Translations under genes and position numbers: made by a program | Virus record (IMG/VR): IMGVR_UViG_3300042882_001139 | Coordinates: 1-64,000 of that record | Length of the DNA: 64,000 nucleotides | Direction: 5' to 3' (one strand) | Origin: an uncultured virus (IMG/VR IMGVR_UViG_3300042882_001139) | Lineage: Duplodnaviria; Heunggongvirae; Uroviricota; Caudoviricetes | Shown: one piece after another, positions 14,724 to 63,109 of the stretch | Position numbering within the stretch: the first letter of the stretch is position 1 | How the letters are laid out: every line of letters begins with the position of its first letter | The notes under the pieces: model-generated | Told to the model about the DNA's origin: nothing | Seen by the model: the letters and a program-made list of their open reading frames with translations, nothing else | Database searches by the model: none

Positions 14724-15545
14724 ATGGCAAGGACGCCAAAAAAACAAAAAAACGAAATTCTCTCCGCTAATGAAACACTGAAAAAACTCTTTGACCTTGG
14801 TTACTTTGGTGAAACACCGTGGGCGAAGGTTAAGACAATTCGCGGGGCCGATTTATCGCGGGCTGTAAAAGCCTATCAGGAGTTTAACGGCCTGGAGCCG
14901 ACCGGCGCCGTTGAGCCACGCACTGCTAGTCGCATTCACAGGCCGCGATGCGGGCTACCAGATTTTAATCTGACGGCGCCTGGCGGTGCTCCGTGCAAGT
15001 GGCTGCATAAAAAGATTACGTACTATCACGACATTACGCTTCCAGGCGTAACAGACGAGCAGGTTAAAGAAGCGTACGACATTGCTTTTTCGCAGTGGGC
15101 CGAAGTTTGCGATATTGAGCCGACCCGCGTTGACGGCTCAGATAAAGCAAACATTTATGCTCGATCAGGCGTTGGCCGTGCTAGCGGATTAGATAACAAG
15201 GGCGGCACGCTGGCCTGGAGCGAATTACCGTGCGGCGTAACTGAAAACGTGCAATTAGATCAGATGTTCGACGAGGCCGAGCCGTGGTCATTTAATATGG
15301 CCGTAGCGGTGATCTGCCACGAACTTGGGCACGCGCTTGGTTTGCCACATTTAAATTCTGGCAATTTAATGGCGCCTTATTACGATCCAAATGTAACTGG
15401 CCCACAAAAGGGCGACATTAAAGAAATTGTCAAACTATACGGTAAGCGTAAAGAAAAATACGCAATTACAAAAGACGCTGCGCCGCATATTCACGGTACA
15501 TTAGTCATTAATGGGCGGCCGTACGTGCTCGTGCCGCAAACTTGA
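14724..15545 (+). CDS. matrixin (M10) zinc metallopeptidase with PG-binding-like prodomain and cysteine switch
   Basis: AVKAYQEFNGLEPTG, PRCGLPD, HELGHALGLPH, Met-turn LMAPYY. Confidence 0.92.
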   Translation: MARTPKKQKNEILSANETLKKLFDLGYFGETPWAKVKTIRGADLSRAVKAYQEFNGLEPTGAVEPRTASRIHRPRCGLPDFNLTAPGGAPCKWLHKKITYYHDITLPGVTDEQVKEAYDIAFSQWAEVCDIEPTRVDGSDKANIYARSGVGRASGLDNKGGTLAWSELPCGVTENVQLDQMFDEAEPWSFNMAVAVICHELGHALGLPHLNSGNLMAPYYDPNVTGPQKGDIKEIVKLYGKRKEKYAITKDAAPHIHGTLVINGRPYVLVPQT

Positions 15546-20448: not shown

Positions 20449-23400
20449 GTGCTGCCCTTAAACGCGCCTCAAGAACAGCCCCGCGAATTTGGCGATGTTC
20501 CCGCTTTGCGTCAAAGCATTTTTAACAATGCTTTGCAGAGTGCACAGAGCATCGAGCCAATTAAAAACGATCTGTACACGCTGCAATTAAACGACGTAGC
20601 GTACGACGGCCCGGAAGCGTTTACCAAAGCCGATCAAAAGCGTGCTGTGCTTACACGCGGCAACCTGTCGCGAAAACTCCGTGGCACATGGACGCTGACG
20701 GATAACAAGACGAATACGCCCGTCGCCAATCGGCCCGTCACGTTAGCCAGTGTGCCGTACTTAACGGACTCCGGCACATTCGTGAACAAGGGCGTCGAAT
20801 ACACGCTGGCTCATCAATTACGTTTGCGTCCCGGCGTGTTTACCAGACAAAAAGACAACGGCGAGTTAGAGGCCCACGTTAACACGCTTCCAGGTAAAGG
20901 CCGTTCGCACCGGTACTACTTAGACCCGCAAACTGGTGTGTTCAAAATTCAAATTGGGCAGGCGCAGATTCCGCTGATGCCGCTTTTGAAAACTCTTGGT
21001 GTCACAGACAAACAACTGCGTGATACCTGGGGTAACGAGATCACTGCTGTCAACATGCAGCAAGGTGACGCCGGAACACTCGACAAACTTTATCAGCGCC
21101 TTGTGTACTCGCCAGATCCGAAAGCGGATGAACTGGCGAAGATCAAGGCTATTGCCACTGAGTTCAACAAAACAGAGTTCGACGAAGAAGTCACTAGTCG
21201 AACGCTGGGCAAGCCGTACAAAAATTTAACGCCTGACGCCATTCTCGACATCACGAAAAAACTGATTGCCGTTAATCGCAAAGAGGCGGACTCGGACGAT
21301 CGAGACAGCATGGCGTTTCAGTCTGTGTTCGGCCCCGAGGACCTGCTGGCAGAGCGTTTCGTTAAAGACCGCTCGGTGCTGCGGCAACTGCTCTGGAAAG
21401 CCACGGCAAAAAAATCTTTAGACCACATTCCGACTGGCGTGTTCAATAAGTCGATTCAGGCCGCTCTTTTAGGGTCCGGCCTTGGATCAAGTCTTGAAGA
21501 AATCAACCCGGCCGAAATCTTTGACCACCAAACGCGCGTCACCCGGCTCGGCGAAGGCGGGATCGGCAGCATGGACGCCATCCCGGCCGAATCGCGCTCG
21601 GTGCAGCCAAGCCATTTCGGATTCATTGACTATTTGCGTACGCCGGAATCTGGCAAGGTCGGCGTGGACATGCGCTTTGCCGCCGGGGCACGAAAAAGCG
21701 GGAAAAACTTACATACGTTCGTAATCCCGGTGCGGAATGCAAACACCGGGAAAACCGAATACAAAACGCCGCAAGAACTTACGGACATGCCGCTGATGTT
21801 CCCCGGTGAAGACAAGTCAGATCTTCCGATGGTTGCGGCACTAGTTGGCGGCAAGATTAAGTATGTACCGCGGAAAGACGCACAGTACACCGTTCCGAAC
21901 ATGGACAACACTTTCTCGGCACTTACAAACATGGTGCCGATGAAGTCTATGGTCAAAGGGCAGCGCGTGATCATGGGCGCTCGAATGTTTACACAGGCTT
22001 TGCCGCTCGTAAACGCCGAAGCCCCGCTCGTACAGTCTGCTACAAATGACGACGAGAACATATCGCACGAAGATCTGATCGGCGCCAAGATGGGCACGGT
22101 TAAAGCAGACGAGCCTGCCGAGGTGCTACAGGTTACACCCGACAACATTGTTCTTCGGCTGCGTGACGGTACGAAAAAGACCGTCGACTTGTACAACGAC
22201 ATGCCGTTTAATCGGAAGACGTTCTGGACGCAAAAAGCAGCCGTTCAGCCCGGCGACGTGATTAAACCCGGCCAGATTATCGCCACAAGCAACTTTACCG
22301 ATAAGAGCGGAGCGGCAGCCCTCGGCATGAATATGCGTGTGGCGTATGTGCCTTTCCGCGGCAAGAACTACGAAGACGCCATCGTGATCTCGGAATCCGC
22401 GGCCAAGCGCCTAACGTCTGAGCACATGTACCAGAACGAGGCCGAGTGGGACGACAACACGCACGTCGGTAAAAAGGCGTTTGTCAGTCTGTTTCCCAGT
22501 GAGTACGACAAAAAACTGCTCGATAACTTTGACGACCAGGGCGCGATCAAAAAAGGCACGACCGTCAACTTCGGCGACCCGTTAGTGCTAGTCGCCAAAA
22601 AGAAAGAACAGGTGTACGGAAAAGTGCACCGCGGCCGGGCAGGTAGTTTCTCGAATGACACGCTGACCTGGGACCATCATTCGCCAGGTATTGTCACTGA
22701 CGTCGAGCACACAAAGAAGGGCGTGTCCGTGGTTGTAAAGAGCCAGGCCCAGATGGAGTCGGGCGATAAGTTAACTGGTCGCTACGGGGATAAGGGCGTC
22801 ATTGCGGAAGTTGTGCCGGATAATCAAATGCCGCACGACAAAGACGGCAACCCATTTGAAGTGCTTGTCAGCCCGCTTGGTTTAATTTCACGCGTGAACC
22901 CTGCCCAGATTATTGAAGCAGCGTTGGGTAAAGTCGCGGCTAAGACCGGTAAACCGTACAAGATCAAAGATTTCGACAGTGAGAAAGACCTGGTCGAGTT
23001 TGCACAGCAGGAACTCGCCAAGCACGGGTTATCTGACACCGAAGAAGTTATTAACCCAGAGAGCGGCCATAAAATTCCTGGAATATTAACTGGCCAGCGG
23101 TTTTTCATGAAACTGCACCACACGGCTGAATCCAAAGGCCAGGGCCGAGCGATGGCGGGTTATACAGCCGAAGGTACACCGGCCAAAGGCGGCTCTGAGG
23201 GTGCAAAGCGTGTCGGCATGCTGGAACTGGGGGCTTTGCTTTCGCACGGTGCTGGCAAAGTAATCCGCGACGCCAAGATGGTACGTGGCCAAGCGAACCC
23301 TGAGTACTGGTCGCAATTCATGGCCGGGTATGACGCTCCGCTGCCCAAGGTTCCACACGTGTATGAGAAGTTCGTAAATCAATTAAAGGGTGCTGGCATC

Positions 23401-24822
23401 AATACTGTGCGGACTGGAACCAAGACGCACATTATGGCCATGACAGACAAAGACGCCGCGGCCCTTACAGGCGACCGGGAACTCAAGAGCGCCGAGACTG
23501 TCGATTGGAAGGGAAATCTCAAGCCCATTAAAGGCGGCTTGTTTGATGAGTCACTTACGGGCGGTCATGGCGGCAGTCGGTGGGCAAAGATTACGCTTCA
23601 AGAGCCGATGCCCAATCCCGTCATGGAAGAACCTATTCGCCGCGTCTTGGGCCTGACAGAGAAGAAATTCCTGGGGATCTTGGCCGGCCGGGAACAACTG
23701 GGTGACGCAACAGGCCCCAAGGCTATTCAACAAGCCCTGGCCAGCATTAATCTCCCTAAAGCCATCGAGCAGGCAAGGGAAGACATCAAGTCTGGTCGGA
23801 AGACAGTTCGGGATGAGGCTGTTCGGCGCCTTGGATTCCTTAAGTCAGCCGAATCGACCAATATCCATCCGAAAGACTGGATGATTAATCAGGTTCCAGT
23901 TATTCCGCCTGCTTTCCGCCCTGTGTCGACGATGGGGCCAAAGAAGCTCCCGCTCGTAGATAACCCCAATTACCTTTACAAAGAGTTATTTGATGCTAAT
24001 TCAACACTGAAAGAAGCATCTGGGGCCTTATCAGACTATGGCGACGAGCGGCTGGCTGTTTACAACTCAATGAAGGGTGTGACTGGCTTAGGTGCTCCGA
24101 CTAACCCCAAGAACGTCGAAAAGAACGTCCAGGGGTTTTTAGCCAAGATCTTCGGCGACAGTCCTAAATTCGGCACCATGCAGCGAAAACTGCTTTCGAG
24201 CACTGTTGACTTGGTCGGCCGCGCTGTCATTACGCCGAACTCTGATCTGGATATGGACGAAGTAGCCCTGCCTGAAGAGAAAGCCTGGGATATCTACAAG
24301 CCGTTTGTTATTCGCGGCCTTGTTCGTCGTGGCTTACCTCGAATGCAGGCACTCCAGGCTGTTGAAGACAAAAACAAAGCCGCCTTCGACGAATTAAACA
24401 CCCAGATGAACGCTAAGCCCATTGTAATTAACCGGGCGCCCGTCTTGCACCGCTACGGCGTGATGGCATTTAAACCGCGCTTGACCAAAAATAAGGTCAT
24501 GGAGGTTAACCCGGTAATCACGAAGGGGTTTGGTGCAGATTTTGACGGGGACGCTATGCAATATCACGTTCCCAGCACAAATGAGGCGGCAAAAGAAGCA
24601 CTTGATAAGATGTTACCTAGTAAGAACTTGTTTAGTACGTCCAGCTTCAAGGCTCACTACGTTCCAAACAAGGATTACCAGACTGGGCTGTACCTAGCAT
24701 CGAGTAGAATAAATCAACGCAGTAAACCACGCGTGTTTAAAAGCAAACTAGAGGCTGTGGCGGCTTACCGGCGCGGCGAAATCAACGTAGACACGCCCGT
24801 ACACATTGTGGAAGATAAATAG
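20449..24822 (+). CDS. rpoBC: DNA-directed RNA polymerase, beta subunit fused to N-terminal half of beta'
   Basis: beta motifs TPESGKVG, NYEDAIVISE, GDKLTGRYGDKG, SRVN, MKLHH; beta' motifs VIPPAFRP, GRAVITP, NRAPVLHR, catalytic GADFDGD (24532-24552); GGGAGG RBS before GTG. Confidence 0.96.
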   Translation: MLPLNAPQEQPREFGDVPALRQSIFNNALQSAQSIEPIKNDLYTLQLNDVAYDGPEAFTKADQKRAVLTRGNLSRKLRGTWTLTDNKTNTPVANRPVTLASVPYLTDSGTFVNKGVEYTLAHQLRLRPGVFTRQKDNGELEAHVNTLPGKGRSHRYYLDPQTGVFKIQIGQAQIPLMPLLKTLGVTDKQLRDTWGNEITAVNMQQGDAGTLDKLYQRLVYSPDPKADELAKIKAIATEFNKTEFDEEVTSRTLGKPYKNLTPDAILDITKKLIAVNRKEADSDDRDSMAFQSVFGPEDLLAERFVKDRSVLRQLLWKATAKKSLDHIPTGVFNKSIQAALLGSGLGSSLEEINPAEIFDHQTRVTRLGEGGIGSMDAIPAESRSVQPSHFGFIDYLRTPESGKVGVDMRFAAGARKSGKNLHTFVIPVRNANTGKTEYKTPQELTDMPLMFPGEDKSDLPMVAALVGGKIKYVPRKDAQYTVPNMDNTFSALTNMVPMKSMVKGQRVIMGARMFTQALPLVNAEAPLVQSATNDDENISHEDLIGAKMGTVKADEPAEVLQVTPDNIVLRLRDGTKKTVDLYNDMPFNRKTFWTQKAAVQPGDVIKPGQIIATSNFTDKSGAAALGMNMRVAYVPFRGKNYEDAIVISESAAKRLTSEHMYQNEAEWDDNTHVGKKAFVSLFPSEYDKKLLDNFDDQGAIKKGTTVNFGDPLVLVAKKKEQVYGKVHRGRAGSFSNDTLTWDHHSPGIVTDVEHTKKGVSVVVKSQAQMESGDKLTGRYGDKGVIAEVVPDNQMPHDKDGNPFEVLVSPLGLISRVNPAQIIEAALGKVAAKTGKPYKIKDFDSEKDLVEFAQQELAKHGLSDTEEVINPESGHKIPGILTGQRFFMKLHHTAESKGQGRAMAGYTAEGTPAKGGSEGAKRVGMLELGALLSHGAGKVIRDAKMVRGQANPEYWSQFMAGYDAPLPKVPHVYEKFVNQLKGAGINTVRTGTKTHIMAMTDKDAAALTGDRELKSAETVDWKGNLKPIKGGLFDESLTGGHGGSRWAKITLQEPMPNPVMEEPIRRVLGLTEKKFLGILAGREQLGDATGPKAIQQALASINLPKAIEQAREDIKSGRKTVRDEAVRRLGFLKSAESTNIHPKDWMINQVPVIPPAFRPVSTMGPKKLPLVDNPNYLYKELFDANSTLKEASGALSDYGDERLAVYNSMKGVTGLGAPTNPKNVEKNVQGFLAKIFGDSPKFGTMQRKLLSSTVDLVGRAVITPNSDLDMDEVALPEEKAWDIYKPFVIRGLVRRGLPRMQALQAVEDKNKAAFDELNTQMNAKPIVINRAPVLHRYGVMAFKPRLTKNKVMEVNPVITKGFGADFDGDAMQYHVPSTNEAAKEALDKMLPSKNLFSTSSFKAHYVPNKDYQTGLYLASSRINQRSKPRVFKSKLEAVAAYRRGEINVDTPVHIVEDK

Positions 24823-24838
24823 ACACAGGGAGGCTTTC

Positions 24839-25483
24839 ATGGCGATCAACCCGTATTTAATGTCGATGGCCCGCGATCAATTCGAGAAGTCGGCCGTCGT
24901 TCCGCCTGGCGGCGGTGACCCGTCTATGGGTGCAGCCCCGCCTGTTGATCCTTCTATGGGCGGTGCGCCGCCTATGGACCCGGCTGCTATGGGTGCCGTT
25001 CCACCCGCCGGCCCGGCTGCACCGGTTGATCCGGCCACCGCGATGGCTGCAATGGGAGGTGCTCCCGCCCCCGCTGCGATGCCTGCGGCTGCGCCCGCTC
25101 CCGCTGCGCCGGCCGGCGGCCAGAAGTTAAAGCCTGAGCAGATGATGCAGATGATCGATATGCGGCTGTACAACATGCAACAGCAGTTAACATCGATTAT
25201 GAACGCCATGGGCGTGCAAGTCGCTCCTGAGTCGCTTGTTCTTCCTCCGGGCACGACTGGTGCCCCGCCTGCCGAATCGGCTCTCCCCGGCGGTCCTATG
25301 GCTCCGCCTCCGCCGCAAGACCCTGCCGCGGCTGGTATGCCTCCCGGTGGTATGCCTCCCGAGGCTATGCCGCCTGAGATGGCGAAAGGTGCCAACTGGA
25401 ATGCCGGTCAGATTTTAGATCTGCATACCAAGGCGTCGGCGATCAAGGCGTTACGGAGGAGTTTAGAGAGCAATGCGGGTTAA
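24839..25483 (+). CDS. Pro/Gly/Met-rich low-complexity protein with K-x-A leader
   Basis: GGGAGG RBS; FEKSAV; short helical core LKPEQMMQMIDMRLYNMQQQL. Confidence 0.65.
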   Translation: MAINPYLMSMARDQFEKSAVVPPGGGDPSMGAAPPVDPSMGGAPPMDPAAMGAVPPAGPAAPVDPATAMAAMGGAPAPAAMPAAAPAPAAPAGGQKLKPEQMMQMIDMRLYNMQQQLTSIMNAMGVQVAPESLVLPPGTTGAPPAESALPGGPMAPPPPQDPAAAGMPPGGMPPEAMPPEMAKGANWNAGQILDLHTKASAIKALRRSLESNAG

Positions 25484-25712
25484 AACGCAATTTAACCTGC
25501 AACCAGCGGACACGCCGGCCCATAGCGTCGTAATTGAAGACGACATGGGTAATCCAATTATCGTGGCAACACAACTGACCGAGTCAATTGTGTTTTCCAC
25601 GGTAAATGACCCCGACTTCCAGTCCGTGCTTCGATCTCTCGGCATTACTAAGACTGTAAAAATAACAGAATTTAAACCCAAGCCGCTTCAAGATATTATC
25701 TGGACACCGTGA
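25473..25712 (+). CDS. small hypothetical protein between RNAP genes
   Basis: GGAG RBS; overlaps both neighbours. Confidence 0.6.
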   Translation: MRVKTQFNLQPADTPAHSVVIEDDMGNPIIVATQLTESIVFSTVNDPDFQSVLRSLGITKTVKITEFKPKPLQDIIWTP

Positions 25713-27595
25713 TGTTAAAAACCACGCTTGGTCAAATTCTGATTAACGACGCACTCCCGGAAGATCTGCGGGACTACGATCGTGTCTTAGATAAAAAGAC
25801 GATGGGTGCCTTGGCGACAAAACTAGCCGAGCAGTACCCAGACAAATATCGAGATGTCATGAAGCGGCTGCACGACGTCGCTCACGAGTCGGCCCATACG
25901 ACCGGCGGCCTGTCTTTCGGGCTCAAAGATATTAAGCAGACGCTTGCCGCTCGCCATGCCCAGATAAAGGCTCGTGCCGGTCTGCGTGCGATCATGGCGA
26001 ACGGCAAATTCTCCGAAGAACAGCGAACGCAGAAGATCCTAGAACTAGCCTCAACTATTCAGCAGAAACTAGTAGAGGACGTTTATGCCGAGGCTAAAGG
26101 TAATGATAATCCTTTGATGCACCAGGTGTTGGGGTCTGGTGTCGGCAATAAATACTCGCTGAATTCGATCATTGGTGCCGACATGCAATATGTCGACCAC
26201 AAAAACGATCCGATTCCTTTGCCGGTGCTGCACAGTTACAGCCGAGGCTTAAGACCCGCCGAGTATTTTGCGGGCGCCTTCGGCGCCCGCAAGGGTGTAA
26301 TTGATACTAAGACGGCTACGGCAGACGCCGGCTTTTACGGCAAGCAATTGACCCAAATGGCGCACCGCCTGCTCGTTACCGCCGACGATGACGATGACGA
26401 AGAATGGAACAGCACAGCGAGCGAGCGTGGCTTCCCTACAGACGTCGATGACCCGGATAACGAAGGTGCCCTGCTTTCGCGACCTGCGGGGCCGTATAAA
26501 CGAAACACGGTCCTGACGCCCAAAATCCTGCAAGACATTAAAAAAATGGGCGTCAAGGATATTCTTGTCCGCAGCCCGACTGTGGGCGGTCCGAGTGACG
26601 GCGGAGTTTTCGCTAAAGACGTCGGATTTCGCGAAAAGGGCCGGCTACCGCCGGCCGGTGACTACGTTGGAATTGCAGCAGTTCAGGCGCTCTCCGAGCC
26701 GGTATCGCAGGGGCAATTGTCGTCGAAGCATTCTGGCGGTGTCGGCGGTGCCGGGTCTATTTCTGGCTTCAAGGCGTTAAATGCCTTGGTACAGGTGCCG
26801 AAGACATACCCGGATGGCGCCGCTCACGCCCAGCGCGACGGCAAAGTGCAGGAGATCCGCCAAGCACCGCAAGGCGGCGTATACGTCACCATCGACGGCG
26901 AAGAACACTACGTCGGGGCCGACCGCACTGTCGCCGTTAAAAAGGGCGACACACTTGAAGCCGGCGACGCGATTTCAGACGGCATGCCGAATCCGGCCGA
27001 GATTGTTAAGCACAAGGGTATTGGCGAGGGCCGGCGTTACTTTACGCAAGCTATGCGGCAAGTTATGAAAAACAGCGGCATGAGCCCGCACCGCCGAAAT
27101 ATCGAATTGCTGTCGCGAGGCATTGTGAATCATGTCCGCATGCTCGACGAATACGGCGACCACGCGCCAGAAGACGTTGTGCCGTATTCGATGCTGGAGC
27201 GCAACTGGCAGCCGCGCCCGGGGAGCGTTGCGGGCAACCCTACAACGTTAACAGGGCATTATCTTGAGCGGCCCGTGCTGCATTATTCTATCGGCACAAA
27301 AATAAGTAAATCTGTCAACGAAAACTTAAAAAAGTACAACATCGCGAGCGTGCAGGCGCACAAAGAACCCCCACCGTTTCAGCCTGAAATGATTCGCGGA
27401 ATGTCAAACATCTCACACGACCCGGACTGGATGACGCGCATGCTGGGGTCGTATCAAGAAAAAGGCCTGCTGAACAGCGTACACCGCGGTTTAACGAGCG
27501 ACGCGGCCGGCAGCAGTTACGTCCCGGCTTTAGCCCGCGGCGAGCAATTTGGCGTTACAGGTGTTACAAGCGGGTGGAAGCCGGAAGGCGTTTAA
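25709..27595 (+). CDS. rpoC: DNA-directed RNA polymerase, C-terminal half of beta'
   Basis: TTLGQILIN, bridge helix EYF...GARKG..DT...TADAGF, VRSP, trigger loop GIAAVQALSEPVSQ..LSSKHSGG, RNIELL. Confidence 0.93.
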   Translation: MMLKTTLGQILINDALPEDLRDYDRVLDKKTMGALATKLAEQYPDKYRDVMKRLHDVAHESAHTTGGLSFGLKDIKQTLAARHAQIKARAGLRAIMANGKFSEEQRTQKILELASTIQQKLVEDVYAEAKGNDNPLMHQVLGSGVGNKYSLNSIIGADMQYVDHKNDPIPLPVLHSYSRGLRPAEYFAGAFGARKGVIDTKTATADAGFYGKQLTQMAHRLLVTADDDDDEEWNSTASERGFPTDVDDPDNEGALLSRPAGPYKRNTVLTPKILQDIKKMGVKDILVRSPTVGGPSDGGVFAKDVGFREKGRLPPAGDYVGIAAVQALSEPVSQGQLSSKHSGGVGGAGSISGFKALNALVQVPKTYPDGAAHAQRDGKVQEIRQAPQGGVYVTIDGEEHYVGADRTVAVKKGDTLEAGDAISDGMPNPAEIVKHKGIGEGRRYFTQAMRQVMKNSGMSPHRRNIELLSRGIVNHVRMLDEYGDHAPEDVVPYSMLERNWQPRPGSVAGNPTTLTGHYLERPVLHYSIGTKISKSVNENLKKYNIASVQAHKEPPPFQPEMIRGMSNISHDPDWMTRMLGSYQEKGLLNSVHRGLTSDAAGSSYVPALARGEQFGVTGVTSGWKPEGV

Positions 27596-27674
27596 TGTAG
27601 GATAATAGGCTGTAACACGCTAAAGTAGTAAACAGTCAGCGTTTCGTTACGTTTAGTGCCGCATGGAGGTGGCC

Positions 27675-30068
27675 GTGTACAACAAAAGCAAAAAAGAAGC
27701 GTCGTGGCAGCACTGGCTGAAGGTAGTTAGGTCTCACGACCGCAGCCAAGTCAAACAGGCCGAAATTGGCGGCCGTGGCGATGACACTTCTTTTGAACAG
27801 GCGTTTTCTAACCTGGCCCACGCTTACTTGCGTGACTCAGCGCCCAAATTGCTTGATCACGAAGTCGGTTTCCAATTATTGGACCGCAACCGCGAGAACA
27901 CAAAAGCCGTTGGCGTATTTGCTTTTAAAGTCGGTGCCCAGTGGCTTTACGCCCCGGTATTCTTTTTAAACGGCGACTTGAAAGGGCACGAACTCCTGTA
28001 CATCAAAAATCAGGATATGTTCGTACCGCTCAAAGAAAACTGGATCAACTATTTAATCAATCGAAAGCCGAACATCCTTGGCAACGGCGTCGATCGAAAT
28101 CTGTCGAATCTTGGCCAACGGCAGCCGGACTTCACGCAACTTTCCCGCAGCCCGTCAAAGTTCGGCTCGGCGCAGCCCACGCTCAAAGAGATGATGACTG
28201 CGGCCATGCCGGCATTTGCGAAATCGGCCACGATGAATACCGCCCAGGCTTTTGCCGAACTTGGCAGTGCGATCAACCTGCCGGCGTTCTTAAAAGAAGC
28301 CAGCATGCAAATGTTAAGCACGCTGGTTAACAGCTGCAAGAAAGCCCCCGAACTCGCCGAGGCCATCGACTCGTTCCACGGTTTAAATATCGTCAAAGAG
28401 GCCGTAGCACAGGCGTCGGCTCGCGTAAGCCGCACAAAAGTGGCGAGCGTGTTGTCTGAGGCTCCCAAAACGCCAGCGGCTGAAAAGTCGCTTGAAGTCA
28501 TTACGCTCGATACGACGGTGCAGACTAAGTTACCGCCGGGTCACACAGAAGAAGACCAGGAAAAACTTTTGCGGGACGGCGTGCTGATTCTCGACAAGCG
28601 GGATCGCGACAACGTTTCGATTCCCTACCATATCCAAGTCGAGAAGCGGCTGTTTAATCCGACCGAGAGCGGTCTGTACGAAATCCTCGTCAAGCCGGGC
28701 AATATTGAACGCTGCTACGTGGCCGTATTCCCGATGGGTGCCGCCAAGCGGTCTAACTTCGTCACGGTCGTTCGCATTGACGGTAAAGCCGACTGGATTA
28801 ACACACGGGCTGACCATGTTTTTGCACTTTCCCGCGTAGAGGGCGAAGAGTTTGACAAATGGTATGACGGTCTTCCGGAAGCCAAAAGCCTTCCGTCCGG
28901 TCGCTCGCGCGTAATGCTGCTTAACAAGCGCGGCGACACTACCGCCCCGGTTCGGAGCCTTCGCGAATATGGCGAAACAAATGGCTCGACGGTGTACGAA
29001 GTGCATCTCGAGGATTACACAAAGTTTCCGCCCAAGGGCAGCATTTCTCCGTGTTGCTACTCTGACCCGCTTAATTACGACAAGTACCGCGACGGCGTGC
29101 GGCTGCATTTAAACGGTAAAAAGGGTTCGTCGCTGCGTGCCAGCATGGGCGACATCTTTGTGCCGGAAGGGTTCAAGATGCTGAAGTGCGAGCCGGGCGA
29201 AGACGACGTCGATTCGGCTGAAGGGCAGGGTGCATGCGGTTGCGGCGAAAGCAAAGATCCGCCGCTGATGCCGGGCAACCTGCTTGACGCCCAGATGGAG
29301 TTGATGCAAAAAACATCGTCTTTAACTGTGACAAATAACGGTCACGCTGTAGAGATTCACAGCGGGCAAAAACAACTCGTTGAAAAAGAACTGTCTGAAA
29401 AGCAGGCACTGGTGTCGTTAGTACGGCAGCACGGTTTACGAGAAGAAGCCGCCCGCGACATTCTGAAACAAGCGGCTGATAAACGAAAGTTTGAGTGCCG
29501 CGTAAAATATGCCGAGCCGTACGGCAGCCCGATGATGATCAACAGTGCCCCGAACGCTCCGAGTGATCCCGGCGCGGTCATGGGCGGCGAAAGCATCATG
29601 GGCACGAGCGTTCCAACACAACTCGGTATTGACGTCGGTATGCCTGTGTCGGGCATGGCTGCTAGTCAGACGGATCGCAGCGTTTACAACCCGAACACTG
29701 AGTTAGATCAAAAAGATTTACGCTCGGTAATCGACGCCGCTCAAAGCGGTCAACGCGAAGTATTTGACACAGCGATGATTGGCTCCATGTTGCGAACTGT
29801 ACGCGACGACGGCATGGTAGATCGCTACATGGGTGAACTGACAAAGGGCCTCGACAAACTGGGGCGCATCTTGTTTATGTTTTATTGGCATGGCGACCGG
29901 TTTGCCGATCGTTATGGCAAGGCCGACATGCCGGAACTGGAAGATTCGCTGCGTAACGCATTTGAGATGCTTGGCGACGTCATCTTGTTCCTGAAGCAAA
30001 AGACAATCGAGCCGTATCCAGAAGAAGCCAACAGCGACGTCGACTTAGGTCCCGTTGCCAACTCTTAA
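27675..30068 (+). CDS. large head-associated protein with many K-x-A motifs
   Basis: GGAGG RBS before GTG 27675; VKQAE, AKSAT, LKEAS, TKVAS, VKYAE; position in head module. Confidence 0.6.
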   Translation: MYNKSKKEASWQHWLKVVRSHDRSQVKQAEIGGRGDDTSFEQAFSNLAHAYLRDSAPKLLDHEVGFQLLDRNRENTKAVGVFAFKVGAQWLYAPVFFLNGDLKGHELLYIKNQDMFVPLKENWINYLINRKPNILGNGVDRNLSNLGQRQPDFTQLSRSPSKFGSAQPTLKEMMTAAMPAFAKSATMNTAQAFAELGSAINLPAFLKEASMQMLSTLVNSCKKAPELAEAIDSFHGLNIVKEAVAQASARVSRTKVASVLSEAPKTPAAEKSLEVITLDTTVQTKLPPGHTEEDQEKLLRDGVLILDKRDRDNVSIPYHIQVEKRLFNPTESGLYEILVKPGNIERCYVAVFPMGAAKRSNFVTVVRIDGKADWINTRADHVFALSRVEGEEFDKWYDGLPEAKSLPSGRSRVMLLNKRGDTTAPVRSLREYGETNGSTVYEVHLEDYTKFPPKGSISPCCYSDPLNYDKYRDGVRLHLNGKKGSSLRASMGDIFVPEGFKMLKCEPGEDDVDSAEGQGACGCGESKDPPLMPGNLLDAQMELMQKTSSLTVTNNGHAVEIHSGQKQLVEKELSEKQALVSLVRQHGLREEAARDILKQAADKRKFECRVKYAEPYGSPMMINSAPNAPSDPGAVMGGESIMGTSVPTQLGIDVGMPVSGMAASQTDRSVYNPNTELDQKDLRSVIDAAQSGQREVFDTAMIGSMLRTVRDDGMVDRYMGELTKGLDKLGRILFMFYWHGDRFADRYGKADMPELEDSLRNAFEMLGDVILFLKQKTIEPYPEEANSDVDLGPVANS

Positions 30069-31393: not shown

Positions 31394-33004
31394 ATGCAGA
31401 CATTGAGCAAAGAAGCCGAACAAAAGTTAATTGCTGCGATTGAAAAAGCTGCAGCATTAGTCAACGAAGGGCTATCGCCAAACGCTGCAATCATTAAGAG
31501 TGCCGCCGCCGCCGATATTCCCGCGGGGCATATTAACCTTATGGTGCATGCGTACAACACAGGCCGCACCACCAAGCAACGCGAACAAGGCGAAAACACG
31601 ACTGAAAAGTCGGCTGATTTCCAACTGGCTGACGCCCCCACGGTTTTAGATGCTCTGTACCCCAAGGCTGTTAAAACGTCGGCAGAAATCGTGCGGCAAG
31701 AAATTGTATCTACGGACTACGCCGTTTCGCCTGCCGGCATGCTCGCTCGCCGCGTGGCTGAGCAGGAGAAGGCCGCAGCGGCTCAAGTGGCATTACCGGC
31801 AAAGACATATGTGCCGTATCCGCGTGACGAGCAATTCGCCGCTGAGCGGGCCTATAGCGTCAAACGTGCCGAGCAGTTGGCTGACGAGGAGCGGCGCCGC
31901 ATCGCTACGGCTGCGTACTCTAAAGCCGCCGCGGCGCTTGACGGCGTAGTTGAGTATTTCCGCACTCCGGGAAACATGTCGTTCGCCGACGCTGTTCGTC
32001 AGGTTGGCTTACGTTTCGGCGACGAGGGTGTTTCGGTGCTGCACAAGGTGGCCGAAGTTTATCCTCAGTTTAAAAAGCAAGCGGCAACGAACAACAACCA
32101 CTTTGGCGATAACCCCCTGTACGCCCGCGTACAAAATGTTGTTATTCTGACGGAAGAATATGTCAAAGCGAGCGCGGACTTAAAAAAAAAGACGCCAGTA
32201 ATTAGTAATAAGAAAGTAGCCACTTTTCTTACAGGTTCGGTGCTGCAGGCGCCGGTAGACTTCTCTAACGGCGTAACTTTAAAGCAAGCAGCAGGCCCGC
32301 GTGGCGGGCATTTTCCTGTATCTGCCGGGCCAGGATTACCGCCGAGTCTTGCGGCGACATTATTCGGCATTAACCCGCCTGCTCCGCCTGCACCGCCTGC
32401 ACCGCCGGCAAAGCCATCTCCTAAGCCCGAAAAGCCGGAAGAGAAGAAGCCGCAGGGCAACCGTGGCGGCGGTGGCGGCGGTAATCGTGGTGGTGGCGGT
32501 GGCGGCAAGGGTGGTGCCAGCAATTACGAAAAAAACTTACAAACGTTTTTTGAGAGTGCTAACCGGCCAGTCAACACTGTTGGTGAACAAATTGGTCTTG
32601 CTGGTGCTGCCTCGCCAGCCGGGATGGCTAAAAGCATTCTTGGCTTAGACAAAGAGCCGCGCGACATTGGTTTAAAGATGTTGAAAGAGATCTCCTCGCC
32701 CGACCACGAACTGACGCTTAAAAATATTCGCGCTCAAGCCACGCTTCACGACTTGATGCTTAATGACGACGTCATCTCTGGTTATAGCCCTCAAGAAGTA
32801 GCATTGGCGTTTAATGAAGTAGCCGACGCGGCGCCAAACGTCGTGCAGTCCCCGGCTGTCTTACGTGCCATGCTTCGGAAACGTTTAGAGGCCGGACAAC
32901 TTGCCGATTTTGACGCGAAACAATTACTTGAAATGGATAAACTCAAAGCCGAGCGGGATCAAACAATGCTTTCGGCCCGCAAACTCCAAGAAGAACTTGC
33001 GTAA
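31394..33004 (+). CDS. head-associated protein with many K-x-A motifs
   Basis: IEKAAA, IKSAAA, EKSAD, EKAAA, KKQAA, LKQAAG; no Cys. Confidence 0.6.
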   Translation: MQTLSKEAEQKLIAAIEKAAALVNEGLSPNAAIIKSAAAADIPAGHINLMVHAYNTGRTTKQREQGENTTEKSADFQLADAPTVLDALYPKAVKTSAEIVRQEIVSTDYAVSPAGMLARRVAEQEKAAAAQVALPAKTYVPYPRDEQFAAERAYSVKRAEQLADEERRRIATAAYSKAAAALDGVVEYFRTPGNMSFADAVRQVGLRFGDEGVSVLHKVAEVYPQFKKQAATNNNHFGDNPLYARVQNVVILTEEYVKASADLKKKTPVISNKKVATFLTGSVLQAPVDFSNGVTLKQAAGPRGGHFPVSAGPGLPPSLAATLFGINPPAPPAPPAPPAKPSPKPEKPEEKKPQGNRGGGGGGNRGGGGGGKGGASNYEKNLQTFFESANRPVNTVGEQIGLAGAASPAGMAKSILGLDKEPRDIGLKMLKEISSPDHELTLKNIRAQATLHDLMLNDDVISGYSPQEVALAFNEVADAAPNVVQSPAVLRAMLRKRLEAGQLADFDAKQLLEMDKLKAERDQTMLSARKLQEELA

Positions 33005-33007
33005 GAC

Positions 33008-33997
33008 ATGAACAACAACGACTTTGAAAAATTGGCAGGTCAGTTAGCCCGCAGCGCCGTTACTGGCGAAACACTGCCATCAAACTTAATGCAAATTAAA
33101 ACCGCGTTCGTCGGTGGTGACGCCGGGCGTTATTTACTTGGCGGCCTTGGCGGGGCGGGTATCGGCGCACTCATTGGTGCGACGCAGGGCCGCAATAAGA
33201 AACGCAACGCCCTTTATTACGGCACGCTCGGCGGCCTTGGCGGCCTTGGCCTCGCCCACTTTATGAACGGCGGTAACAGCGCTGCCCCGACGCCGTCAAC
33301 TACCCCGACGGCTAAAATTACACCGTCGGCTGCGCCTGCCGCTGTCAAACCAAAAGACGTACAGCGAGTAGAAACGACGCCAATGCGCGTAGCCGATAAG
33401 CCGACCGAGCAAGTTGCGCTGACAACAAACGCTGACGGCACAGTAAGCGTTGTGCCGTATAAGGGCTACAGGCCAGACGCTATTAAACCCCACATGGAAA
33501 CTGATTTATACAAACAGGGCCCGTCTCGGCATCCGTTAGCTGACGGCGTGTCGCCAAACGCCGGCGGGAGTGATTTTTTAAATTGGGTGCAAACCGGCAA
33601 AATGCCGTGGTATAAGAAATTAACCGGGCGAACGACGCAGTATCAAGACCGTTTTCGTGGTTTATTAGAGTCGTATGAACGTAAAACTGGAAAACCGGCA
33701 ACGAGCATGGCTGAACTGCGGGAGACTGGTTTATTGCCAAAAGACGATTTAGATATCTACACGAAAACACCCAGCGGCCAGCCGATTGCGATGACAAACC
33801 CGCAAGACAAAACTAACTTGCTACAAATGATTAATAGGATTCGTGAGTTTCCGGGCGGGGAAGAGTTTTATTTGAACAACGACCGCGATATGGCAAAAAC
33901 GATAGCGTGGATACAAAACACTGCGGCAGAACAAGCGCGCCAACAGGCTAGTCGTTTTGGTTACGCCGGCAGCCGTGGCGCCGTAAATGCACGATAA
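33008..33997 (+). CDS. putative internal virion protein with glycine zippers
   Basis: FEKLAG, IKTAF then LLGGLGGAGIGALIG and GTLGGLGGLGLA; no Cys. Confidence 0.65.
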   Translation: MNNNDFEKLAGQLARSAVTGETLPSNLMQIKTAFVGGDAGRYLLGGLGGAGIGALIGATQGRNKKRNALYYGTLGGLGGLGLAHFMNGGNSAAPTPSTTPTAKITPSAAPAAVKPKDVQRVETTPMRVADKPTEQVALTTNADGTVSVVPYKGYRPDAIKPHMETDLYKQGPSRHPLADGVSPNAGGSDFLNWVQTGKMPWYKKLTGRTTQYQDRFRGLLESYERKTGKPATSMAELRETGLLPKDDLDIYTKTPSGQPIAMTNPQDKTNLLQMINRIREFPGGEEFYLNNDRDMAKTIAWIQNTAAEQARQQASRFGYAGSRGAVNAR

Positions 33998-34021: not shown

Positions 34022-35476
34022 ATGAGCATGATCAAAGTTATTCAGCCGCACGCTCAAGACTTTAGTGAGCCAGTCGCGGAGATTATTAAGATCTCAAGCC
34101 GCGGCCTCATCGGTGCCGACAAGCAGGCATTCGTTAAACGAGCCGGTGCGGAGTTTGCCCATAAACTTGAAAACATTAAGTTTGCAAAAGATGAAGTTCC
34201 TGTGCACATGATCGCGATTGGTGCCACAGAGGACTACGGCCCGAACCGCAACGGCGACGGCTTTACACGAGACACATGCCGTAAAGATCACAACACGTTT
34301 GAAAAGTTAGCCAGGTTCTATCGGGACCACGCCAACAAGAATCCGGCCAAGTCATTCGGCATCGTGAAGGCCAGTGCCTACCACGAGCCCATGCACCGAA
34401 TTGAACTTGTCTGCGCGTTAAATGGCACAAAAGAAGCGGCCGATCGCAATGGCGGTTTAATTGCTGACAAAGAACTTGAGAAACTGGCCAACGGGAAAGA
34501 GATCCCGGTATCGATGGCCTGCAAAATTCCTTTCGACAAATGCTCTTCTTGCGGCAACACGGCTCGTACCCGGGCTGAGTATTGCGACTCACCAGAGAAC
34601 GGCGGGCACTGCAAGGCGGGCGGTTTAAAGCACAACATCGGTCGGGTGCTGGCGGACGGTCACGTGCTACACGCCGACAATACGAAGTGTGCGTTTTTTG
34701 ACATTTCTCACGTGTTTCGCCCGGCTGACCGAATTGCGTATGTATCTGGCCGGCTTGAAAAAGCCGCTGGTACAGCCATTCTTTCTGGCGCTGAATTGGC
34801 TGAGCACCTTGGCGTCACCGCACCGATTGGATTTAACTTAGATGGTAACTCAAGCAAGCGGGCTCACGCACAGTTAGAGGCTTTAAACTTACTTGTCCAA
34901 GCCGAAGCCACCCAGAACAGTGCTGAGTGGACCAAACTTGCCCTGGCTTCATCGCCGGAAGTACAGCCGCCTATTGATGTAAGTGCGTGCTCATTTGTTA
35001 AAATGTCAGACGTGTTGCGTGGGCTGGCTGACGCCGGTGTTATCCTGCCGCTGCGCGACTTTTTAGCACTGACTTTAAAGACAGCAAGTGAGGACCTCGT
35101 CGGGGCTGTTGCGAAAGCCCTGCCCAATATTTTTACAAAAGTTGCAAATGATCTAGACATGGCGACGCTTTTGGAGAATAATGTTTACTACCCTTCGAGT
35201 GTGGCTCCGGCTGCTGTTAGGGTGTGGGCAGAGAAAGTAGCGCAAACCCACAGCGTATTACCGAGTAACATCGAAAAGCGTGCATACTTAGCCGCGATTC
35301 GTAACGCTCGGTTAGATAACATTCCGTGTGAGAAACAAGCAACTGGGAACGCAGAAACAGCACTTGCGCAACATTACGCGTTGTATAAGATTGCCGCTTT
35401 CGCCGCCATTTGTGATAAATACGGAAATAACTTGTTGACAGCAAACCACTGTGTACTGCAAAATTACATCATGTAA
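34022..35476 (+). CDS. prohead maturation protease (HK97/assemblin fold) with zinc-ribbon insert
   Basis: NRNGDGF, RDHAN (His), VSMAC (Ser), CSSCGN...YC, FFDISHVFRPAD; precedes scaffold and capsid. Confidence 0.8.
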   Translation: MSMIKVIQPHAQDFSEPVAEIIKISSRGLIGADKQAFVKRAGAEFAHKLENIKFAKDEVPVHMIAIGATEDYGPNRNGDGFTRDTCRKDHNTFEKLARFYRDHANKNPAKSFGIVKASAYHEPMHRIELVCALNGTKEAADRNGGLIADKELEKLANGKEIPVSMACKIPFDKCSSCGNTARTRAEYCDSPENGGHCKAGGLKHNIGRVLADGHVLHADNTKCAFFDISHVFRPADRIAYVSGRLEKAAGTAILSGAELAEHLGVTAPIGFNLDGNSSKRAHAQLEALNLLVQAEATQNSAEWTKLALASSPEVQPPIDVSACSFVKMSDVLRGLADAGVILPLRDFLALTLKTASEDLVGAVAKALPNIFTKVANDLDMATLLENNVYYPSSVAPAAVRVWAEKVAQTHSVLPSNIEKRAYLAAIRNARLDNIPCEKQATGNAETALAQHYALYKIAAFAAICDKYGNNLLTANHCVLQNYIM

Positions 35477-38038: not shown

Positions 38039-38965
38039 ATGCCCACTCAGCAAGAAGTTCAACTGCTCAACGAGACTCTCTTTGAGCAACTCGATACCCC
38101 CGGCATGCAGAAGCAGGCCATTGATGCTGTTAACGACTTCACGCGCACCAAGATGCGTGAAGACGGGTTCTACCGGCGGATTATGCCGCCGCTGACCATC
38201 ACCAACGACGAGCTCGACCGTCAGGTTGACACTGACAAGCCCGTCAAGGTTGTGGACAAGGAGCCCGATTCCCCGGCGGCTGTGTCGCTTCCGTTTGCGA
38301 CACTCCCGATCAACTTTTACATCCGTGGCCCGCGCTACCGCGTCATGTTTGACCGGATCGTGTCGCCCCGTGCTGTGAAGGACGTCGACGAACTCCGTAC
38401 GTATGTCATCGACATCCGTCAGGTGCTCAGCGACAACATGATCAAGGACATGCTCGCCGAGGAAGACTCGAAGTTTATTGCCGCTTTCAAGGCCGTACTC
38501 CCGACGCCTGGCACCGAAGTCACGATGTCGGAAACGGTTCAGTACGAGGAAATCTCTGGTGGCATCACCCGCGAAACGCTGGTTGACGCCCTCAAGGTTA
38601 TGCCCCGTACGCCGTCGCACTTTGAAGTTGAGACCTGCCTCGTGAATAACATCACGATCAAGGAACTTCTCAAGTTCGGCCGCGACGAAATGGGTGGCGA
38701 TTTCAGCCAGGACATCATCAAGAATGGCTGGGCTGAAACCAACTTCCTGAACTGCCGCTGGATCGTCACGATCAAGCGCGACCTCGTTCCGGACGATTCG
38801 CTGTTCATGTTCGCTTCGCCGAAGTTTATCGGCAAGAACTACGAGCTGGAACCCACCACGATGTACATCCGTCGTGAGGCTTACATGCTTGAGTACTTTG
38901 CCTACAACACGCAGGGTGGTTCGTTCGGTCATACGAACGGTCTGGCCCGTGTTGACTTCAAGTGA
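38039..38965 (+). CDS. putative major capsid protein (HK97 fold)
   Basis: Position after protease/scaffold/decoration; strongest C-ending codon bias; QKQA near N-terminus; EEDSKFI backbone-helix-like motif. Confidence 0.7.
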   Translation: MPTQQEVQLLNETLFEQLDTPGMQKQAIDAVNDFTRTKMREDGFYRRIMPPLTITNDELDRQVDTDKPVKVVDKEPDSPAAVSLPFATLPINFYIRGPRYRVMFDRIVSPRAVKDVDELRTYVIDIRQVLSDNMIKDMLAEEDSKFIAAFKAVLPTPGTEVTMSETVQYEEISGGITRETLVDALKVMPRTPSHFEVETCLVNNITIKELLKFGRDEMGGDFSQDIIKNGWAETNFLNCRWIVTIKRDLVPDDSLFMFASPKFIGKNYELEPTTMYIRREAYMLEYFAYNTQGGSFGHTNGLARVDFK

Positions 38966-41838: not shown

Positions 41839-41875
41839 TCCCCGGTTCTATTCATTCCCTAAGAAGGAGATGTGC

Positions 41876-60628: not shown

Positions 60629-62288
60629 CAATTACGTATTCTCGCAGTTTAAACTTTACGCCATGATAGAAGACATCGGGCGTGTAGACGATATTGTCGC
60701 CATATCCGGCAACTTTGCGTTAAACACGATTCCAACAGCTGCACTCATTTTGGCTTGCGGTATTAACGCTACAACGAACGCGCAGGCCAGTGCCCACTCA
60801 AAAATTATGGGCAAAATAAAGTCACGTGCTCGCGTGTCCGTGTACTTAGAAGTAGACACGACCGATGGCTACAAGGAAAAAATGCCGAGCGAAAAAACGT
60901 TCATGGTGTTTGACGGATACTATGCGGGGTTTGGTTTTCAGCGTTCGAACAATAATGCAAATTACACGCTGCACCTAGTGCACTGGCTCGATGACTTAAA
61001 CATAGGCTCGATGTTAAACGGGCAGTGGTTCCCCGGGGCGCCGTTTAACGTAGCCGATAACGCGGGCTACTACACGGCGACGAACCAGGCACAGGGCTCT
61101 GGCTTTGTAATGGCCCCGGCAATTGATCCTGACAATCAAATCATAACGTATTCAAATATCACGAACGACCTGTGGGGCGATGTGCTGAAGCCTGTTCTAA
61201 CAGTTATTGCTGGTTGGGGCACGAATAAGTGCGCCACAGGCGTAGACACCGAGCATGAAAAAAAGATCAAAGCGGCCTTAGAGAAGATGCCTGGCTCCGC
61301 ACCGAACAAAGTAAAACTTGGCTTAAACCTTGACGGCCCCGGCGGGCTTACGGGAGATCTCATTAGAGATTCCGTCAACGATGCTTTAACAAAAGTTGGC
61401 GTGCAAGCGTTTAGTTACTCAACTTTTTGGAGCAAACTTACCGGCGAATACGCACCGCAATTTTTGTTCGCACTGTCGCCCGGAGTTGACTTTGCACAAG
61501 TCGTGCCTGTCTTCGGCGGGTTAAAGTGGCGCGACGGCGACAAAGTCGTTTACGCTGACGAGTACGGCTACGCTAATTTTATGGGCAACACCCGTCAAAC
61601 ACTTGGCGGCATAGACATTATCTGGCCTGCAAGTTTTGGCTCTGGTTTAGTCGCCGGCACGCCGGTACAGAACGATTATCGCCCGCCGTCGTTTTGCGAC
61701 CCGCCAGGTCTTTTTCCGTCACATGAAGCCCGCAAAACGCGGCCGGGCACTGTGCTTGTAAAAGAACCACCGAGTTGGTTCGGCAACATCATGAGCAAAA
61801 TATCGAATACATCTCGGACGGCCGGGTTAAGCGGTAGCGTGCTAGGCGCTAATAACGACGCCAGCAAAGGTGCCGACGCTACAGAAAAAGCAAAAAAAGA
61901 ATCTGAACTGCAGCAAAATATAAAAGACAGTCCGGTGTTAGACAGGTTTGCCGAACAGTGGTTTAAAACAGAATTACTGCAGCAGCGTTACGGCGAGTTT
62001 TCCGGCAAGTTACGCTTTGATATAGCTCCGGGCAGCGTCATTAAAATTAAAGCACCCACAGAAAACATGCCGCAGTTGTCAGATAACACGGACATGATAG
62101 CAACTGTCGTGCAAGTTTCGTTCTCCATTAACGCTGAAAACGCAAACGCAGGTACGGCGTTTTCCGTATCACATATTCGTTCACCTGCTGAAAACGACGA
62201 TCGTTTAATCGCTGGGTCCGACACGCCGCCGTTATACAATGAACGCTGGGCCGGCGGCCCGCTCTCCTCAAAAATTAAATACACATGA
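60621..62288 (+). CDS. putative baseplate hub protein (gp27/gpD-like)
   Basis: VFDGYYAG N-terminal barrel; GKLRFDIAPGSVIKI...VVQVSFSI. Confidence 0.6.
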   Translation: MPDNYVFSQFKLYAMIEDIGRVDDIVAISGNFALNTIPTAALILACGINATTNAQASAHSKIMGKIKSRARVSVYLEVDTTDGYKEKMPSEKTFMVFDGYYAGFGFQRSNNNANYTLHLVHWLDDLNIGSMLNGQWFPGAPFNVADNAGYYTATNQAQGSGFVMAPAIDPDNQIITYSNITNDLWGDVLKPVLTVIAGWGTNKCATGVDTEHEKKIKAALEKMPGSAPNKVKLGLNLDGPGGLTGDLIRDSVNDALTKVGVQAFSYSTFWSKLTGEYAPQFLFALSPGVDFAQVVPVFGGLKWRDGDKVVYADEYGYANFMGNTRQTLGGIDIIWPASFGSGLVAGTPVQNDYRPPSFCDPPGLFPSHEARKTRPGTVLVKEPPSWFGNIMSKISNTSRTAGLSGSVLGANNDASKGADATEKAKKESELQQNIKDSPVLDRFAEQWFKTELLQQRYGEFSGKLRFDIAPGSVIKIKAPTENMPQLSDNTDMIATVVQVSFSINAENANAGTAFSVSHIRSPAENDDRLIAGSDTPPLYNERWAGGPLSSKIKYT

Positions 62289-63109
62289 AACCAAACATGC
62301 CGCAAACGAATAGCCCAAAAGGTATGCCGTCCATTCTGGGCGACGTCACGCCGCCATATTCGGCACCAAGATCTATTACCGGCGTCGCGCCGGAATTTGA
62401 TGACCTGTACACGACCTGGCAAACGACAAAGACGCCAGAAAACAACACCAAGGTGCTAGCCGCATTACAGCCGGTTATTGACACCGCTGTTTCGTCATAC
62501 GGTGGCGCCAACGCTACTCCAAATCTTAAGTCTCGTGCCAAACTCATGGCTCTTAAAGCGCTTGACACATATGACCCCAAACGAGGCAATGTGCGCACGC
62601 ATTTGTTGTCTCAGTTGCAAAGCCTGCGGCGGCTGTCAGCAAAAGAGCAACACATCATTAGCCTGCCAGAACAAGTAGGGCTAGATTTTCAAAAATTGAC
62701 GCTAGCTGAAAGTGAGCTTACTGATGCACTTGGCCGCGATCCGACAGACGACGAACTAGCCGATCACACCAATTTGTCTACACGGCGAATTCGTAAGATT
62801 CGTGCGTTTAATCAGCCGCTTGCAGAAGGTTCTGTTTCTCGTGTCACAGAAGAGTCAGCCGGTGGCGATGTTGCAAGTCACATCCCAGGCAGCAACCGTG
62901 GAACAGATGCGTGGATGAACTTCGTATACGACGATCTCGGACCGACCGATAAAATGATCATGGACATGACGCTGGGCAGGAACGGTAGACGACGTGCGTC
63001 GACGCAAGATATCGCAGCGCGATTAAAAATAACGCCCGGGGCGGTCAGTCAGCGTGCGGCAAAGATACAGCAAATGCTCGATAAACGTTTTGACTACGGA
63101 GGCTTTTAA
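62285..63109 (+). CDS. RNA polymerase sigma factor (sigma70 family, FliA/SigF-like)
   Basis: Region 2 ALKALDTYDPKRG, region 3 LGRDPTDDELADHTNLS, region 4 STQDIAARLKITPGAVSQR. Confidence 0.85.
   Translation: MKPNMPQTNSPKGMPSILGDVTPPYSAPRSITGVAPEFDDLYTTWQTTKTPENNTKVLAALQPVIDTAVSSYGGANATPNLKSRAKLMALKALDTYDPKRGNVRTHLLSQLQSLRRLSAKEQHIISLPEQVGLDFQKLTLAESELTDALGRDPTDDELADHTNLSTRRIRKIRAFNQPLAEGSVSRVTEESAGGDVASHIPGSNRGTDAWMNFVYDDLGPTDKMIMDMTLGRNGRRRASTQDIAARLKITPGAVSQRAAKIQQMLDKRFDYGGF

Follow-up and report, generated by a model that had tools for sequence, protein, structure and literature searches.

How a bacterial-type RNA polymerase (RNAP) can be laid out as one chain that joins the beta subunit to the first part of beta' and a second chain that carries the rest of beta' is the question raised by a locus of an uncultured tailed virus (IMG/VR IMGVR_UViG_3300042882_001139). 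The DNA analysed here, referred to as the window, comprises the first 64 kb (64,000 nucleotides) of the 123,067-bp virus contig, which is rated 60% complete. Near-identical DNA is present in lake and freshwater metagenome runs (24 rows from 22 studies), with no RNA dataset among the runs listed. We find a real and widespread variant of multisubunit RNAP that is apparently undescribed and apparently belongs to neither the mReC, the jumbo-phage nor the cyanobacterial enzymes, and the residues encoded by its two open reading frames (ORFs) make it very probable that they specify an active polymerase. The elements of the locus are, in window coordinates:

20449..24822, + strand: RNAP chain 1, 1457 aa, with the whole of beta (~1-985) and the N-terminal part of beta' (~992-1457; clamp, catalytic barrel); no cysteine
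23398..23439, + strand: fusion junction, residues 984-997, where the last beta strand and the first beta' strand form a beta-hairpin (alignment, AlphaFold2)
23563..23574, + strand: GHGG loop, in place of the beta' N-terminal zinc-binding domain (E. coli beta' ~67-98; alignment)
24532..24552, + strand: catalytic GADFDGD, residues 1362-1368, with the three Asp kept and G in place of E. coli N458
25709..27595, + strand: RNAP chain 2, 628 aa, the C-terminal part of beta' (funnel, bridge helix, trigger loop, jaw, clamp C-terminus); no cysteine
~26255-26368 and ~26696-26740, + strand: bridge helix and trigger loop, respectively, within chain 2

A sequence-only reading of this DNA had described a 1457-aa ORF that passes from beta into the N-terminal part of beta' and ends soon after GADFDGD, with the bridge helix and trigger loop in a second ORF of 628 aa, and coordinates, Pfam matches and alignment all bear this out. 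Chain 1 matches Rpb2_3 (349-411), Rpb2_6 (578-905), Rpb1_1 (1107-1190, below the cut-off) and Rpb1_2 (1321-1386), while chain 2 matches Rpb1_5. Residue 985 of chain 1 (..GAGIN, nucleotide ~23401) aligns with E. coli beta 1336, and beta' begins after a short linker downstream of it. Chain 1 ends close to E. coli beta' 553, 89 aa past GADFDGD, and chain 2 starts close to beta' 568, the ATG at 25712, which overlaps the stop of a 79-aa ORF, being a likelier start than 25709. Together, the two chains cover beta and beta' free of gaps in the alignment, except for lineage-specific inserts and the N-terminal zinc domain.

In the AlphaFold2 model of residues 740-1457 (61 sequences; predicted local distance difference test (pLDDT) 87), the junction is a two-strand hairpin at 984-997, the strands of which span residues 245-250 and 253-258 of the modelled fragment with a pLDDT of ~90. 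The best fold matches of this model are RpoC1/beta' chains, the top ones being cyanobacterial and plastid RpoC1. Chain 2 is modelled with less confidence (pLDDT 69.5), but its model matches the C-terminal parts of beta' (E ~1e-21, root-mean-square deviation ~15). The site of the split is a short turn in most single-chain relatives, for example VKVGGHETTIGR. Thus, both rearrangements lie in beta-hairpin turns, the fusion closing one and the split opening another, and neither touches the active site.

The layout recurs wherever the junction can be followed. Among near homologues (the best 120 of 1275) and the listed representatives of 50% clusters (150, P0121-P0270), a single alignment crosses the junction in 120/120 and 150/150, respectively, and none of the 270 continues into the C-terminal part of beta'. 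In 52 of the 55 related viral loci compared from IMG/VR the junction lies within one ORF, the other three ending before it, and a separate beta'-C gene is visible in 46, with a joined beta'-C in 0/55. Contigs from two other sequencing runs (X8 and X9), neither of them flagged as a possible source of the record, match the window with zero differences and cover the junction (20956-24404) as well as the stop of chain 1 together with the start of chain 2 (23427-26191), and the same layout is found in the isolate genomes of Salmonella phage Arash and Vibrio phage D69. An artefact of assembly or a spurious frameshift, whether at the junction or at the stop, a concern of the sequence-only reading that a single, partial metagenomic contig might invite, is already refuted by this agreement of homologues, independent runs and isolates and has a negligible probability, and we regard the fusion-plus-split layout as practically certain. 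Two loci considered as differently arranged forms were set aside: the break in L055 sits in an intein-sized insert inside beta with the junction intact, and L258 (three ORFs), a candidate for an unfused ancestor, is broken inside beta, its last ORF spanning the junction and all of beta'.

The residues expected of a two-barrel RNAP are retained. Equivalents of beta E813, D814, K1065, R1069, K1073, R1106 and H1237 and of beta' R425, D460, D462, D464, Q929 and H936 are kept, so that the DxDGD triad of the beta' barrel and the two lysines of the beta barrel are present, as are a bridge helix and a trigger loop with its Gln and His (Q929 and H936), both in chain 2. Since chain 1 holds both double-psi barrels, the whole catalytic centre resides in chain 1. 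The catalytic motif of the near homologues is GADFDGD in 108, NADFDGD in 10 and AADFDGD in 2. In addition, most of the positions that we take to form the rifampicin pocket (Q513, D516, S531) differ in the window's enzyme.

Many of the cluster representatives carry an intein-like insert at the catalytic motif. In 24 of the 150, DFDG-N (or DxDG-N) precedes a Cys, with Asp-Thr at the end of the insert, whereas in 20 others DxDGD is followed by a mostly atypical first residue, and those inspected mostly end in Asn-Thr. As Asn occupies the third catalytic position in 0/219 insert-free proteins, splicing may have to restore Asp, or the insert boundaries may be unusual; the literature searched contained nothing on an intein-like insert with Asn at this position.

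The sequence-only reading overlooked the loss of zinc sites and cysteine. By alignment, the two beta' zinc sites of bacterial core RNAP are both absent from the window's enzyme: the N-terminal domain is replaced by GHGG, a deletion shared by Arash and D69, and the second site is lost from chain 2 and throughout the window's sub-clade. The second site is intact in 23/25 single-chain forms of the family and in 6/16 split forms, including Arash and D69. The 2085 aa of the two chains contain no cysteine, when 28 would be expected on the basis of the 87 ORFs of at least 150 aa in the genome. Cysteine is likewise absent from 110 of the 112 near homologues shorter than 1500 aa (intein-free-sized), from 30/31 distinct beta'-C proteins and from 16 of the 21 distant representatives of similar size.

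The single-chain relatives, also overlooked, place the enzyme. A scan with the beta' alignment returned 80 loci, 40 of which belong to the family of the window's enzyme (24 are single chains with complete fusion, 9 are split, 6 are fused but have the remainder unseen, and 1 is broken). With L073 (1930 aa, no cysteine) there are 25 single-chain beta-beta' phage RNAPs (L073, L235-L246, L248-L254, L261-L264, L266), which range from 1930 to 3008 aa, the longer ones carrying inserts; L073 and L238 both lack the beta' 520-570 segment. Trees were inferred with FastTree (82 rows x 1401 columns; 19 named bacteria) and with IQ-TREE on 45 of these rows and the 650 most conserved columns (8 bacteria), from which 37 rows (near-duplicates, extra bacteria, giant-virus rows and Rhizobium phage Y65) were left out; mReC is represented by L075 and L092, two of the 97 published mReC contigs. 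Both trees recover one family clade (Shimodaira-Hasegawa-like approximate likelihood ratio test (SH-aLRT) 99) apart from the bacteria (100) and the mReC-like loci (99), although FastTree leaves the sister relation between the family and mReC unsettled. In neither tree does the family branch within the 19 or 8 bacteria, and at least 80 bacterial rpoC loci on genome contigs share 28-32% identity with it, and no group stands out as clearly closest among the matches listed. The distinct phage lineage that the sequence-only reading had proposed is thereby upheld, with the qualification that the layout is not rare, being found in hundreds of metagenomic relatives as well as in cultured Arash and Vibrio phages D69, D148 and D181. 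MT836236 and matches labelled Staphylococcus, Listeria, Salmonella and Acinetobacter were rejected as phage RNAPs, having separate rpoB and rpoC and resembling host chromosome.

Within the family, a single clade of split forms (SH-aLRT 95-96) unites the window, Arash and D69; single-chain forms surround this clade, and L266 is basal. This nesting suggests that the fusion came first and the split later. The approximately unbiased (AU) test weakly rejects a tree in which the single-chain forms all make up one clade (p 0.017) and rejects a grouping of the split clade with L255 (p 2e-12), which would imply a second split at nearly the same loop, in one contig. On these comparisons, the family of single-chain phage RNAPs is large and the window's enzyme is its split offshoot.

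Each half of the layout has a precedent. In the fused RpoBC of Helicobacter and Wolbachia, the C-terminus of beta is joined to the N-terminus of beta', but the whole of beta' remains in one chain, and alpha, omega and zinc are kept. In the cyanobacterial and plastid enzymes, beta' is cut after the catalytic region into RpoC1 and RpoC2, as in the window, yet the cut lies ~20 residues further downstream (RpoC2 residue 6 corresponds to chain 2 residue 25), beta is separate, and alpha, omega and zinc are present. A split of beta' after the barrel is described for jumbo-phage and cyanobacterial RNAPs in the available portions of PMC7598289. The phiKZ/AR9 RNAPs share with the window the lack of alpha and omega and the split after the catalytic barrel, and a virion-packaged form exists (PMC7598289, PMC7824862, as far as their accessible text goes). 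According to the same partial sources, they differ in that they comprise four or five chains with a split, not a fused, beta, come as two enzymes in each genome, have no recognisable sigma70 and are far more divergent, and it is by this description that the window's enzyme is set apart from them, the trees containing no phiKZ/AR9 sequence. The single-chain RNAP of crAss-like phages joins beta to beta' as in the window but keeps the whole of beta' in the chain, and it is not alignable to cellular profiles (available parts of PMC7481178).

The mReC RNAPs resemble the window's enzyme in being phage-encoded, alignable to cellular beta and beta' and outside the bacteria, but have separate, full-length beta and beta' (PMC7481178, accessible parts), a cysteine-rich beta' with zinc sites, and a clade of their own. 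In the mReC table (Weinheimer and Aylward 2020, PMC7481178), beta and beta' are separate in 104/104 phage rows, and the words 'fused' and 'split' are absent from those portions of the supplements that are available. The published mReC filter called for a beta' match of at least 800 aa with NADxDGD (PMC7481178, available text), and would thus exclude the window's enzyme, which has no separate beta and beta' of that length with NADxDGD and does not fall in the mReC clade (2/97 contigs identified). An origin from mReC or from a cyanobacterium, by which the layout would already be explained, could appeal to the proximity of the split to the RpoC1/RpoC2 boundary and to the RpoC1 fold matches, although the latter may reflect only similar chain ends. 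Against it stand the 104 separate pairs (PMC7481178, in part) and the separate clade of the mReC loci in our trees, and a grouping of the split clade with a cyanobacterial-type (Melainabacteria) enzyme, of which there is one row only, is rejected by the AU test (p 6e-45). Judging from the trees, the window split is independent of the cyanobacterial one, a common origin being rejected, and we consider this explanation largely refuted and very improbable.

The closest described system is Arash (OQ632216), whose Gp206 (1525 aa) and Gp216 (606 aa) show the same fusion, the same N-terminal zinc-domain loss and the same split near E. coli beta' 553-568, and whose sigma factor and capsid protein are orthologous to those of the window; its helicase is Gp217. 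Arash and the Vibrio phages D69, D148 and D181 are 31-32% identical over 97-98% of chain 1 and belong to the same clade, but retain the second zinc site and some cysteines, have an AADYDGD motif and carry other genes between the chains. The Arash paper labels Gp206 and Gp216 simply beta and beta', and its available parts contain no mention of a fusion and no enzyme test (PMC10585845). The layout itself is undescribed in the literature searched, which mostly excluded subscription papers, where a description may exist.

The sequence-only reading had seen no alpha subunit, and we find alpha in 0/5 genomes with two Pfam models (PF01000 and PF01193) and omega in 0/5 with PF01192, the genomes being those of the window (60% complete), three relatives (two rated 100% complete) and Arash; controls were positive in 14/14 genomes. 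One beta match per genome was found in 5/5. A sigma factor, missed by the earlier reading, is encoded at the far end of the window:

62285..63109, + strand: sigma70-like factor, 274 aa, no cysteine; orthologue of the Arash virion sigma Gp10

Its regions 3 and 4 are clear and region 2 is divergent; the profile alignment to SigA/RpoD begins at region 2.3 (E 1e-9). A further sigma gene of Arash, gp196 (L056, record 120656-121693), has a clear region 2 and is not listed in the Arash virion table. The four lake-phage genomes yielded no second sigma. A homologue of the Arash helicase Gp217 is present in 3/4 genomes searched and missing only from the partial contig.

We propose that the phage has a single, active RNAP of bacterial type and that the two ORFs encode its two chains. 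Chain 2 would dock on chain 1 and supply the bridge helix, the trigger loop and the clamp's far half. With beta joined to beta', the alpha dimer would no longer be needed as an assembly platform. The phage sigma would steer the enzyme to phage promoters, and enzyme and sigma may be packaged in the head and delivered into the cell together with the DNA, there to transcribe early genes; the loss of cysteine and zinc sites would suit exit from the particle and passage through an oxidising envelope. The history that we envisage begins with beta-beta' fusion and loss of the N-terminal zinc domain in the family ancestor. A cut of beta' at a hairpin turn on the surface would have followed, and the sub-clade of the window would subsequently have lost the second zinc site. 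Taken as a whole, a virion-packaged, alpha-independent early RNAP is a reading that we consider reasonably probable.

Packaging and early action are suggested by the cysteine loss, by the position of the genes in a virion cluster and by mass spectrometry (MS) of Arash virions, the case for particle presence and delivery to the cell being indirect. Cysteine suppression marks the ejected proteins of N4-like phages (PMC11445570, available part). In the Arash virion, unique peptides number 128 for Gp206, the most detected, 40 for Gp216, 24 for the sigma Gp10 and 38 for the helicase Gp217 (PMC10585845, available part); by our own division of the MS counts, these four reach 2.0-2.4 spectra per residue, compared with 1.5 for the portal and 4.3 for the capsid. 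The virion cluster of the window includes:

27663..30068, + strand: 801-aa protein, homologue of the Arash virion protein Gp218; next after chain 2 in most loci
34022..35476, + strand: homologue of the Arash virion protein Gp222 (38% identity); as a guess, a prohead protease
38039..38965, + strand: major capsid protein (30% to Arash Gp226, E 1e-35)

The earlier placement of the RNAP 'among head genes' holds loosely: the capsid gene lies ~10 kb downstream of the RNAP genes, and the 123-kb contig gave no portal match. The capsid ORF has no Pfam or PHROG match and does not match the mReC capsid family PF07068.

Several observations weigh against this proposal. The beta' segment that we take to be an alpha contact is retained in chain 1, the equivalents of N458, R731 and R933 are altered in the window's copy, and Pfam does not detect region 2 in the sigma factor. 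Five of the 21 distant representatives of similar size carry 2-17 cysteines, and Arash, 32% identical, keeps cysteines (one in Gp206, four in Gp216) together with the second zinc site, as do most single-chain forms for the latter (23/25); since Arash and most single-chain forms keep cysteines, their loss is neither needed for packaging nor family-wide. Among the 116/252 proteins on the Arash MS list are primase and ligase, and the authors concede that contamination or carry-over may have occurred (PMC10585845, available part). As for the order of events, branch support is SH-aLRT only, with no bootstrap, and the nesting of the split clade leans on one long basal row, L266.

The same chains might instead act with host alpha (and omega), the phage giving only the catalytic part and sigma. 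The retained beta' 520-550 segment and a DxxTG-like beta motif, presumably alpha contacts, fit such a hybrid, as does the high alignability to bacterial enzymes, but the fusion ties beta to beta' in any case and single-chain L073 and L238 delete the beta' segment. Alpha-less cores moreover exist in jumbo phages (PMC7598289, available part), and we consider a hybrid enzyme unlikely. It is also rather improbable that the enzyme is made during infection for middle or late transcription and not injected, with host RNAP reading the early genes. Each genome encodes only one RNAP, which may serve late genes, the Arash MS data are noisy (PMC10585845, in part), and k-mer counts in 50 intergenic stretches gave no convincing promoter motif; yet the chains and sigma are cysteine-free, the RNAP genes lie in the virion cluster, and the 128 unique peptides of Gp206 compare with 2-14 for most likely contaminants (PMC10585845, in part). 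The virion-packaged enzyme remains the reading that we prefer.

Two small ORFs lie between the RNAP genes, and both are conserved only in the window's sub-clade:

24839..25483, + strand: Pro/Ala/Met-rich ORF; no family, no cysteine
25473..25712, + strand: 79-aa ORF, its stop overlapping the chain 2 start; no known family

The first probably starts at ATG 24839, after a Shine-Dalgarno sequence (225 aa if from TTG 24806), and its core is found in 46/55 near loci. The second is present in 47/55 near loci and in L226-L228 and L230-L232, but not in Arash, D69 or single-chain forms; it lacks matches in Pfam and PHROG and a usable one in the atlas, resembles neither the small ORFs of Arash or D69 nor E. 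coli subunits, and is a candidate accessory protein.

Elsewhere, K-x-A motifs, possible maturation-protease sites, are enriched in the head-cluster proteins (18677-39723; 74 versus 38 expected), but not in the RNAP (15 versus 14 expected) or the tail genes; in the single-chain RNAPs L242 and L251, K-x-A motifs are inserted in the loop where other enzymes are genetically split. Cysteine-free products include a 615-aa protein (10784-12631) with 2H-phosphoesterase, P-loop kinase and DUF5661 domains, a candidate co-ejected enzyme, a 1290-aa protein of no family in the tail region (55259-59131), a tape-measure or ejection protein candidate, and the products of 31394-33004 and 33008-33997. The window further encodes a PhoH-like protein (3711-4424), a Volactin-family actin homologue (8250-9284; PF25216, E 2e-61), a peptidoglycan-binding zinc peptidase (14724-15545), a MoxR-like AAA ATPase (41822-42697) and a tail sheath (47157-50327). 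Outside the window, contig positions 90969-91711 hold six copies of a 16-nt T-rich repeat, non-coding and beside a large gene, possibly an origin or regulatory array.

The multisubunit RNAPs of cells depend on structural zinc and on a platform of the alpha type for their assembly. An alignable bacterial-type enzyme that has neither alpha, omega nor zinc sites, yet has a sigma70, is a natural test of the roles of those parts. In its fullest form, to which we give even credence, our proposal is that two chains and sigma form a self-sufficient enzyme without alpha, omega, zinc or cysteine that would be ejected unfolded with the genome and refold in the host, as the smallest sigma70-using core known and as a branch within a large and as yet undescribed family of phage RNAPs in single-chain form (~1900-2150 aa), which would be a further deep lineage beside bacteria and mReC. 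A polymerase of one or two genes, probably rifampicin-insensitive, could serve as a tool. The family is abundant in lakes and was passed over by the mReC filter, as far as the available description of that filter goes, and its cultured members make these claims testable.

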